Below, one piece after another: positions 931 to 3,358 of a stretch of DNA of 4,294 bases. Source of the stretch: Escherichia coli (GTDB taxonomy: Bacteria; Pseudomonadota; Gammaproteobacteria; Enterobacterales; Enterobacteriaceae); NCBI RefSeq assembly GCF_003334385.1, contig NZ_QOWN01000084.1; one strand, given 5' to 3'. The stretch's first letter is position 1. The number at the start of each line of letters is the position of its first letter. The notes below the pieces were generated by a model that searched no databases, was not told the origin of the DNA, and saw nothing but the letters and a program-made list of their open reading frames with translations. The position numbers were made by a program, and so were the translations under genes.

Positions 931-3358
931 CAAATGGCGTGACATAAAGTTCATTCTTGCATCTTTAATGTCAATTTCGATTTGTAAGGCGTCTGAATTA
1001 GATCGATTTAACCCTGATTTCTTAAGAGTATCTGATGGCGTAAATGCTAAAGAAATTGATTTAACGTACTTTGAAAAAAATGATGGACTTCCTCCAGGAA
1101 ATTATCAGGTGTGGATATACATTAATGGGGAAAAAGTTGGTAATAAAAGTCTAAACTTTAGAAGAAATAAAGACCAAAAAGGTATTCATGCCTGTTTTAA
1201 CAAAGGGGATTTAAGATCGTGGGGAGTAATTAATTCGATATCAGAAGAAACTGTCTGTGAAATAGGATTAACATCCGTTATTGATAATTCTTACGAGCTT
1301 TTCAATGAAAAAAAAATGGAGTTACATCTTTACTTTCCTAATTCTATGCTTGAGCGTCGAAAATGGAGGAGTTTACCTGTAACATGGAATCAAGGCATTC
1401 CCGCTTTTCTGTTAAATTATAATTACACAGGAATTTCTCAGAGATTAAACAAGAAAAATGAAGATAATTATTTTCTGAGAGTTGATAGTTCATTAAATAT
1501 CAATCGCTGGAGATTAAGAACTGAAACTTCAATGATGAAAAATAATAAAAATAGTGGGAATGAGAATGTTTATCTCGAAAGGGATTATGAGCAATACCAA
1601 GGTGGACGTATTGTTATTGGAAACTCATATATAAATAGTGAGCTTTTTGATAACTTTCCATTCAAGGGAGTTAAGTTCTCATCTGATGATTCAATGCTTG
1701 ATTCTTCATTTTCGGAATTCACCCCGAGTATTAGAGGTATTGCACATAGCCCATCAATAGTTACTGTTAAACAAAACGGAAATATTGTTCTTCAAAAGGA
1801 AGTTCCTGCTGGAGTATTCGAAATTGATGATATCCCTTATAATTTTGGTGGGGACTATATTATTGAGGTTAATGGTTCTGATGGGGTAAAAAATACATTT
1901 ACACAAGCTAATGCATCTCTACCTTTTCTGCAAAAAGAAGGGCGTACAAATCATTATTTAGCATTAGGTAAGTTAAGACATCAATATGGTACAGATACCT
2001 ATGAACCGAATTTTATTCTATATCATATCGCAAAAGGTTTAAGGTTTGGAAATACATTACATCATGGTGGAATTATTTCTAATGAATATAAATCAATTTT
2101 GTTTGGTGGAGGAACCTATCATCCATACTTAGGTGCTTTTTCAGTTGATTATACTTTCTCTGAAAGAGAAGATAGAAAATATGAAGGGCGAGGGCGAGGT
2201 GATAAGTTTGAATTTTCTTATTCAAGGAATATAGATTTAACAAGTGCAAATTTATCTATGCATATGAACATTTTCGATAAAGATTACCTTAACTTTCAGG
2301 AGCATGCGTATTCTTTCAATGGAAATGCAAATACATATGAAAAAACGAAACGAAACTTCGGGGTGCGCTTAACGCAACCTATTGATTATTACGCAAATTT
2401 TTCGCTGCAGTTTGATAAATATTCATATTATAAAAACAGAGATGATAGTTACAGTTTCTTAACATCAATAAGTACTAACTTCAAAAAAATAAGTAGTTCA
2501 TTATCACTTGGATATAATAAGTTTTTGGGAGTTAAAGATGCAGATAAAACAATAAACTTTATGATTTCATTACCTTTATGGAATGGCATAAGTTCAAATA
2601 ATTTCATATCTTCCTCTTCCGAGGGCGCAAGAATCCAGTCTGGTGTATCAGGATTTTTAGAAGAACAACAGTTATCATGGGGGGTGTCGCATGAATCTAA
2701 TAAATCAGTTGCAACTACAAATTCAAGTGTTAATTGGAAGACATCGTTTTCACAGATAAACGGAGCATATTCGGTTAATAATGACATGAACCGTCTATTT
2801 ATGGGGATTAGAGGTGGGGTGGCCATACATGATAAGGGGATAACATTTTCTCAACCTCTGTCTTTTGAGGGGGGCAATGCTTTAGTAGATGCAAATGGAA
2901 TTAGTGATATTGTCATTAACAATAATAGGGTTCATACGGATTATTTTGGTAATGCTATTGTAACAGATTTATCTCCATACCAAAAAAATAACATTTCAGT
3001 TAATTTGTCAGCTACTTCAGATGCTATCGATATAACTAATACTGATACATATGTAGTTCCATCCCACGGGGCTCTAACTTATGTCGAACTAAATGCGGTT
3101 AAAGGAAATAGGGTGCTATTTAAGTTAAATAACAAGTCTCAAAAAATACCATTGGGAGCGATGGCTACAATAACTGGCCGTGGATTTAAGAAAACAGAAT
3201 TTATTGGTTATGATGAGAAACTATATATGAACGGTGTTCCTGAAAAAGGGGTGGTTGTCGTAAAATGGAGTGTTGGGGGGGAGGATTATGCTTGCACATC
3301 AAAATACAGCATAAGGAATAAAAAAAGCCTAAATATTCTTTCATTGATGTGCAATTAA
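920..3358 (+). CDS. Outer-membrane fimbrial usher protein (PapC/FimD family)
   Basis: An approximately 812-aa ORF immediately following the chaperone, the typical size for an usher. The N-terminus has a signal peptide followed by the usher N-terminal-domain motif FNPDFL and PGNYQVWIYINGEKVG (compare the canonical PG.Y.VD.Y.N). The extreme C-terminus carries the cysteine pair typical of usher C-terminal domains (DYACTS...SLMCN). The ORF track starts at TTG 917; I place the start at ATG 920, which has a GGAGA element about 10 nt upstream. The start overlaps the chaperone stop (928-930) by 11 nt, consistent with translational coupling. Confidence 0.93.
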   Translation: MLSNKWRDIKFILASLMSISICKASELDRFNPDFLRVSDGVNAKEIDLTYFEKNDGLPPGNYQVWIYINGEKVGNKSLNFRRNKDQKGIHACFNKGDLRSWGVINSISEETVCEIGLTSVIDNSYELFNEKKMELHLYFPNSMLERRKWRSLPVTWNQGIPAFLLNYNYTGISQRLNKKNEDNYFLRVDSSLNINRWRLRTETSMMKNNKNSGNENVYLERDYEQYQGGRIVIGNSYINSELFDNFPFKGVKFSSDDSMLDSSFSEFTPSIRGIAHSPSIVTVKQNGNIVLQKEVPAGVFEIDDIPYNFGGDYIIEVNGSDGVKNTFTQANASLPFLQKEGRTNHYLALGKLRHQYGTDTYEPNFILYHIAKGLRFGNTLHHGGIISNEYKSILFGGGTYHPYLGAFSVDYTFSEREDRKYEGRGRGDKFEFSYSRNIDLTSANLSMHMNIFDKDYLNFQEHAYSFNGNANTYEKTKRNFGVRLTQPIDYYANFSLQFDKYSYYKNRDDSYSFLTSISTNFKKISSSLSLGYNKFLGVKDADKTINFMISLPLWNGISSNNFISSSSEGARIQSGVSGFLEEQQLSWGVSHESNKSVATTNSSVNWKTSFSQINGAYSVNNDMNRLFMGIRGGVAIHDKGITFSQPLSFEGGNALVDANGISDIVINNNRVHTDYFGNAIVTDLSPYQKNNISVNLSATSDAIDITNTDTYVVPSHGALTYVELNAVKGNRVLFKLNNKSQKIPLGAMATITGRGFKKTEFIGYDEKLYMNGVPEKGVVVVKWSVGGEDYACTSKYSIRNKKSLNILSLMCN

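Follow-up and report, generated by a model that had tools for sequence, protein, structure and literature searches.

Runs of G in the usher gene of a plasmid-like fimbrial cluster of Escherichia coli: very probably a by-product of glycine coding rather than a phase-variation switch

Genes of the cluster and position of the G runs

The stretch of DNA considered here (hereafter, the window) comprises 4294 bases of contig NZ_QOWN01000084.1 of Escherichia coli (assembly GCF_003334385.1). It has a guanine–cytosine (GC) content of 33.3% and carries three genes of a chaperone–usher fimbrial cluster. The central gene (positions 920–3358, plus strand) encodes an 812-amino acid (aa) usher with PapC_N, Usher and PapC_C domains; it starts with ATG at 920 and ends with a stop codon at 3358, and an in-frame TTG is located at 917, just ahead of the ATG. 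It is preceded by the gene of a 247 aa PapD-like periplasmic chaperone (187–930, plus strand) with PapD_N and PapD_C domains. The subject of this work is the long runs of G in the usher gene. An initial annotation, made from the sequence alone, suggested that these runs could give reversible frameshift switching of usher function or may simply reflect GGG glycine codons. As described below, the run of seven G (G7) near the 3′ end of the gene and the two runs of six (G6) are very probably an ordinary by-product of coding, at most a weak insertion/deletion (indel) hot spot and not an on/off switch.

The window contains exactly four runs of five or more G, at 595–601, 2679–2684, 2869–2874 and 3275–3281, and no run of six or more C. 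The G7 of the usher gene (3275–3281, plus strand) is read as GGG GGG G(AG) and encodes Gly786–Gly787–(Glu788). The whole site has the codons GTT GGG GGG GAG (Val785–Gly786–Gly787–Glu788), Glu788 being 25 codons ahead of the stop; the annotated location upstream of the C-terminal cysteine pair is correct, with Cys792 and Cys811 lying downstream. The two G6 runs, whose annotated positions were confirmed by a homopolymer scan, are (GA)G GGG GG(C) at 2869–2874 (plus strand; Glu650–Gly651–Gly652) and (T)GG GGG G(TG) at 2679–2684 (plus strand; Trp588–Gly589–Val590). All three usher runs are composed of GGG glycine codons adjoining codons that start or end with G. The chaperone gene has a companion G7 on the plus strand, GGG GGG G(TA), encoding Gly137–Gly138–Val. 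The initial annotation refers to this run; its span is 595–601, one base to the right of 594–600.

Features of the usher protein and its relatives

The usher is identical to P0016, a protein annotated by NCBI as an E. coli/Enterobacteriaceae usher, which falls in a cluster of 48 sequences formed at 90% identity. The Pfam domains occur in the order PapC_N (E = 7e-27), Usher (barrel plus plug, E = 4e-115) and PapC_C (E = 1e-6). An alignment with FimD spans residues 23–806 (E = 4e-85), and residues 731–802 align to the isolated C-terminal domain of Caf1A (2xet). Features characteristic of the FimD/PapC usher family are present, namely the ordered domains, the C-terminal cysteine pair (Cys792 and Cys811, invariant among 11 aligned ushers) and an adjacent gene of a PapD-like chaperone. 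Among the closest known systems are the FimD/LpfC-type (gamma-fimbrial) ushers, with which the cluster shares the PapC_N/Usher/PapC_C composition, the cysteine pair, the PapD-like chaperone and a FimG-like subunit. It differs from them in that the window usher is only 27–35% identical to characterised ushers and the 5′ part of the cluster is apparently gone. None of the named usher equivalogs (LpfC, FimD and PRK15193) gave a score above its NCBIfam cut-off, the best being 360 against 995 bits; for the LpfC profile, the usher scores 342 against a cut-off of 1271. In a profile search, the best matches of the chaperone are LpfB and FimC, with scores under the curated cut-offs.

In the AlphaFold2 model of the usher (mean predicted local distance difference test score, pLDDT, of 76.7, and about 80–85 in the C-terminal domain), residues 786–787 are the sole non-strand pair between strands 776–785 and 788–797. 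According to this model, Gly786–Gly787 would form the two-residue β-turn of the last β-hairpin, in the second C-terminal domain (CTD2). Gly589 is located inside the predicted barrel strand 585–593, and Glu650–Gly651 in the loop ahead of strand 652–657.

Among the 11 ushers, Trp783 and Cys792 are invariant, but the intervening loop differs in both length and sequence; KWSVGGEDYAC of the window usher corresponds to KWGE-EENAHC in FimD and to KWNNG----YC in the nearest relative. FimD is gapped at the Glu650–Gly652 site (2869–2874), and Gly589 is not conserved, with Asn or Ser found in relatives. The nearest homologue, P0002 (34% identical), has Gly–Gly at the 2869 site, encoded by GGA GGA, and lacks a glycine at both remaining sites. 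The usher of a Salmonella Give plasmid has the codons GGT GGT and AAG GGT AGT at homologous sites. The alignment of homologous ushers, proposed in the initial annotation as a check, does not bear out retention of the G runs, since at the three sites the relatives have GGA GGA or GGT GGT or lack a glycine altogether. Both the residues and the runs lack conservation in relatives.

A slip at the 3275 G7 would, in silico, give a product of 800 aa for G8 and of 797 aa for G6. The last 25 residues would be swapped for 13 (G8) or 10 (G6) unrelated ones, with the loss of the final two strands and both cysteines. CTD2 has a part in the transfer by which chaperone–subunit complexes pass from the N-terminal domain on to the C-terminal ones (PMC3960871), so loss of usher function is a likely result of a frameshift, and a frameshift at the G7 would probably inactivate the usher. 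The slip products stop 36–45 nucleotides (nt) ahead of the natural stop; therefore, polarity on the downstream subunit gene is not expected.

Frequency of the G runs and codon usage

The claim that the runs are unexpected by chance holds at the nucleotide level. For the window, a model of independent and identically distributed bases predicts 0.15 runs of at least six G and 0.03 runs of at least seven, and a dinucleotide shuffle predicts 0.65 and 0.16, respectively (P = 0.003 for a count of at least four G≥6 and 0.01 for at least two G≥7). The chromosome of E. coli K-12 contains 0.064 G/C runs of at least six and 0.012 of at least seven bases per kb (250 kb, loci L023–L027). The corresponding values for the window are 0.93 and 0.47, about 15 times the K-12 density for the former, and the plasmid flanks of the cluster contain 0.12–0.44 runs per kb. 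In K-12, G:C runs of 7–8 bp are known as rare outliers, which are indel hot spots in repair-defective strains (PMC8510543), and this rarity agrees with the density computed here. A genome-wide count had been suggested as a way to refute switching; a similar density of G6–G7 runs was not found in K-12, so switching is not refuted in this way.

Although genuine and atypical of E. coli DNA, the runs are what the protein and its codon habits lead one to expect. When the synonymous codons of the usher gene are shuffled, 1.35–1.40 runs of G≥6 are expected against three observed (P = 0.13), and 0.38 runs of G7 against one observed (P = 0.33). With the first base of the next codon fixed, the expectations rise to 2.03 (P = 0.32) and 0.75 (P = 0.58). 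The other possibility raised by the initial annotation, that the runs may simply be GGG glycine codons, is supported in that these codon-level nulls account for the usher count.

GGG comprises 28% of the glycine codons in the usher gene. In the AT-rich ushers (a codon-context set of the window genes, L018, L031 and L032), GGG is used in 27% of cases ahead of G-starting codons versus 14% otherwise (P = 0.013), and this preference is equal ahead of Gly and ahead of Val/Ala/Asp/Glu. The acquired cluster and its host differ clearly in their codon-context habits (GGG before G in the former, avoidance of GGG–GGN in the latter). Nine comparator ushers, namely CS6 cssD, F4 faeD, F18 fedC, pefC, F17, two afa-like ushers, the Salmonella Give plasmid usher and fimD, contain seven runs of G≥6 against 7.7 expected. 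Of the 11 ushers tabulated, G7 is found in four besides that of the window (P0002, Salmonella Give, faeD and the afa-like usher of L034), or in five including the window usher. Isolated G6–G7 runs are common in usher genes.

The origin of the runs is very probably as follows. The usher is a glycine-rich β-barrel protein with the above share of GGG glycines, GGG being favoured ahead of codons that start with G. With such GGG usage and junction bias, runs of 6–7 G can arise at Gly–Gly, Trp–Gly–Val and Glu–Gly–Gly. The anomalous density would then be due to a foreign, AT-rich and glycine-rich gene, not to a switch. Two other candidate explanations were rejected. The reuse of identical codons at Gly–Gly is at odds with a hand count, in which 2 of 8 usher pairs are identical versus about 2.3 expected. 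A G-quadruplex was dismissed in view of the hundreds of bases that separate one run from the next.

Length variation in public copies

Public copies of the cluster were gathered as loci anchored on the neighbouring subunit gene, with no pre-selection for an intact usher, and as usher-anchored loci. L001–L017 and L019–L022 are 99.86–100% identical to the window over all 4294 nt, and no indel is present at any G run in these 21 aligned loci. The only indels seen are located elsewhere, in two copies from one assembly series. In L007 (about 7058–7067; GCA_037022885.1), the A9 run at 1308–1316 of the window (plus strand) has become A10, and the usher is split into 140 and 684 aa. In L009/L043 (GCA_037022305.1), the lone C1720, which is not part of a homopolymer, is lost (TTC to TT-), resulting in fragments of 279 and 419 aa; this copy is a singleton, and a sequencing error is possible. 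The A9 is the sole homopolymer of the window with a length variant seen; should any tract here be prone to slippage, in the DNA or in transcripts, this would be the A9 and not the G runs. The two split copies resemble usher pseudogenes with single-base frameshifts. Unlike G-run switching, both usher-splitting events are off the G runs, and each is a singleton.

The allele P0017 (L019–L022; five contigs) carries the substitution E788K, caused by G3281A, which turns the G7 into a G6 without a change of frame. A lineage that is in frame with G6 shows that the seventh G is dispensable. The same lineage bears on a possible translational signal, in which the Shine–Dalgarno-like GGGGGGGAGGA would make ribosomes pause or favour programmed frameshifting close to the C-terminus of the usher. 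There is indeed a GGAGG at 3280–3284, with an ATG 3 nt further in the −1 frame, but the spacing to this ATG is too short, there is no in-frame slippery heptamer, and the motif is missing from the homologous site in relatives. In addition, the alternative frames stop after 10–13 codons and give no recognisable product, and the E788K lineage turns GGGAGG into GGAAGG, a weaker motif. An internal Shine–Dalgarno site or programmed frameshift was rejected on the grounds of the short alternative frames and the altered motif; such a role is highly implausible.

Products of slippage were sought by exact lookup in a collection of about 15 billion proteins, using the N-terminal products of ±1 changes at the three usher tracts in both common alleles (12 products) and at the chaperone G7 (2 products). 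None of the 12 usher products and neither of the two chaperone products was found in this collection. The products of the two true frameshifts, which served as controls, were both found, in one contig each; the 140 aa product of the A10 copy is a singleton. A pattern with a free spacer of 3–14 bases across the 3275 tract matched three metagenome contigs, all with G7.

Intact usher alleles are present in 327 blocks of the collection (P0016 in 176, P0015 in 146 and P0017 in 5), the exact intact chaperone in 460 and the exact subunit protein in 507. On contigs of at least 5 kb, the intact usher alleles cover 185 of about 215 blocks with the chaperone or the subunit. Many of the cluster-bearing blocks are gut-metagenome scaffolds. 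The blocks are not independent isolates and the assemblies are consensus sequences; on this basis, fixed tract-length variants are bounded roughly at 1% or less, and rare variants within cultures are compatible with the data.

An artefact of sequencing or assembly at homopolymers was also considered. Homopolymers are error-prone on some platforms, and both frameshifted ushers (L007 and L009) come from a single assembly series; however, the same run lengths, with the 812 aa frame kept, are found in independent NCBI, ENA, JGI and Logan assemblies. This concordance across sources rules out an artefact as the origin of the runs, the probability of which is virtually nil.

Comparison with contingency loci

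The suggestion of reversible frameshift switching is not supported, given the lack of tract-length polymorphism in the 21 loci, in the three metagenome contigs and among the 12 slippage products looked up. Under this suggestion, the G7, both G6 runs and the G7 of the chaperone gene would be contingency tracts, in which slipped-strand mispairing alters the length at high frequency and reversibly toggles the usher and fimbriation. Surface structures are the usual class of phase-variable genes (PMC11868660), the runs exceed both nucleotide-level chance and the host background, and a ±1 change yields a truncated usher without the last two strands and the cysteine pair. Truncation of the product by a frameshift, seen in silico, is the only defining feature of contingency loci found here. 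Polymorphism, a tract length that is hypermutable for the host and positional conservation were not found.

Phase-variable repeats have mutation rates 100–10,000 times the basal one (PMC11868660), and the standard way to show them is by differences in length among genomes (PMC11868660, PMC1891110). The fetched loci contain no length variant, and 0 of 12 slippage products were found while both controls were. Tract positions are not conserved in homologues, the E788K lineage has shortened the tract by substitution with the frame unaffected, codon-level nulls account for the count, and the real frameshifts sit elsewhere (A9 and C1720). The lengths also argue against switching. Coding poly-G contingency tracts of Campylobacter have a modal length of G9, their rate goes up roughly ten-fold between G8 and G11, and tracts have to be longer in species proficient in mismatch repair, such as Neisseria (PMC3401435); G6–G7 is shorter than the fast-switching lengths even in Campylobacter, which is without mismatch repair (PMC3401435).

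The poly-G/C loci of Campylobacter jejuni and Neisseria (cj1139, capA; PMC3401435) are similar to the usher gene in having a coding G run in a surface-structure gene, AT-rich DNA and truncation by ±1 changes. Their tracts, however, are typically G8–G11 or longer, vary between and within strains and have measured fast switching, whereas G6–G7 runs in a repair-proficient host, with no length variant in public copies, are found here. The bvgS gene of Bordetella pertussis (C6 to C7; PMC1891110) likewise has a short coding homopolymer and a +1 truncation; the bvgS variants were isolated and phenotyped, while the window tract has no variant allele among public copies. Taken as a contingency tract, the usher G7 is very unlikely.

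The slippage rate of the G7 in mismatch-repair-proficient E. coli would be too low for phase variation, per-run indel rates in the wild type presumably being low. Tract lengths are fixed in the public population, and there would be no reversible switching in E. coli. As a slipped usher is probably inactive, the run is a weak one-way indel hot spot at most.

Excess of runs in AT-rich relatives

Several points weigh against the origin of the runs in ordinary coding. The density of runs in the window is about 15 times that of the K-12 chromosome and 2–8 times that of the plasmid flanks, and native K-12 genes avoid GGG–GGN pairs (observed/expected ratio 0.09–0.68). Consensus assemblies possibly leave room for low-level heterogeneity within a culture, and the near-clonality of the public copies means that they sample only a short span of evolution. 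The C6 tract of Bordetella bvgS switches at low frequency despite its shortness (PMC1891110), and it is because of this precedent that a weak hot spot is kept in the explanation. Finally, with codon context fixed, P0002, the Salmonella Give usher and cssD together contain four runs against 1.02 expected (P = 0.009), and five AT-rich genes pooled contain eight against 3.3 (P = 0.005).

Under the synonymous null, the expectation for the same three genes is 0.69 (P = 0.004). No excess is present in seven ushers with a GC content of at least 43% (5 runs observed versus 7.1 expected). The pooled excess in AT-rich relatives is modest, is unexplained and is not specific to the window locus. The GGD motif of the plug domain is encoded by GGG GGG GAT, which contains a G7, in both P0002 (L018, 1150–1156) and the Salmonella Give usher (L031, 4955–4961), which share just 37% identity; in the window usher, this motif is encoded by GGT GGG GAC. 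The chance of a second GGD G7 match is about 0.03 from codon usage, the comparison being post hoc.

The runs might therefore be relics or low-rate switches of a clade, with GGG–GGG at Gly–Gly turns having been useful or mutationally favoured in the original host and now being inert. The excess in AT-rich relatives holds under both nulls and is missing in the GC-richer ushers, and the shared GGD G7 in two such distant proteins points in the same direction. The sample, however, is small and partly post hoc, the tract positions differ among relatives except for the GGD site, and the generic bias towards GGG before G covers part of the excess. A relic of this kind is quite unlikely. A bolder version concerns the AT-rich plasmid ushers as a group, including cssD and two relatives with 34–37% identity, in which the excess runs would be selected low-rate switches of the bvgS type or relics of contingency loci from a donor with weak repair. 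This is decidedly unlikely; if true, the excess runs of the clade might turn active in mutator E. coli.

Genomic setting of the cluster

The third gene of the window (3545–4105, plus strand) encodes a 186 aa fimbrial subunit that is weakly FimG/StaE-like. A hairpin, TAGGGAC TTT GTCCCTA, followed by TTTTT, is located at 4125–4146, 20 bases past the stop codon of this gene; it resembles an intrinsic terminator but is missing from the output of the consensus scan. The cluster is bounded by the end of an IS2-like insertion sequence (IS) of the IS3 family (4201–4294, plus strand). Its part at 4201–4280 has thousands of 92–97% matches in E. coli and Klebsiella records, and an HTH_Tnp_1 transposase gene lies directly downstream of the cluster in longer contigs.

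On the 5′ side of the chaperone gene, an IS91 (Y2) transposase gene and a fragment of an IS630-like transposase gene are present (L001, 4557–6450). The IS91/IS630-like sequences end about 7 bases ahead of the start of the window. A major-subunit gene is absent directly 5′ of the chaperone gene in the longer contigs, and a promoter/terminator scan found no sigma-70-like promoter in 1–186, upstream of the chaperone gene. The cluster may be a 5′-truncated remnant, its 5′ part having been lost to IS elements, and its expression is uncertain. The same upstream region contains a T9 run at 136–144, 43 bases ahead of the chaperone start codon, with a constant length in all fetched loci.

In longer contigs, the cluster is located on a plasmid-like backbone with ccdAB, parM/stbA and microcin B17 genes and many IS elements. 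The flanks in L001–L017 include microcin B17 genes (encoding McbB, YcaO and a nitroreductase-like protein), umuDC-like genes and, about 3.5 kb upstream of the cluster on the opposite strand, a gene of an AraC-family regulator. As the cluster is flanked by repeated IS elements, assemblies of short reads are interrupted on either side at identical places and produce the same 4.3-kb contig. A contig with the length of the window, 4294, is recorded for another usher allele, P0001. The operon DNA is unmatched in PLSDB and in 5,426 complete RefSeq E. coli genomes, distant mode included; the sole match in the near-mode DNA searches of PLSDB and the complete E. coli genomes was the IS2-like end. Since the operon is unmatched there, these collections yielded no population data.

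Significance

If the tracts of the usher gene were switches, they would be a rare natural example of phase variation by slipped-strand mispairing in E. coli fimbriae, the control of which otherwise depends on DNA inversion or methylation. The evidence speaks against switches, and the practical value of the finding is negative: nucleotide statistics alone are no basis for taking G6–G7 runs for contingency loci in outer-membrane genes that are AT-rich and glycine-rich. Calls of contingency loci need both a null that takes codons into account and a check of populations for variable tract length. As for the little-studied plasmid fimbrial cluster to which the usher belongs, its copies in public E. 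coli data are widespread and almost clonal.

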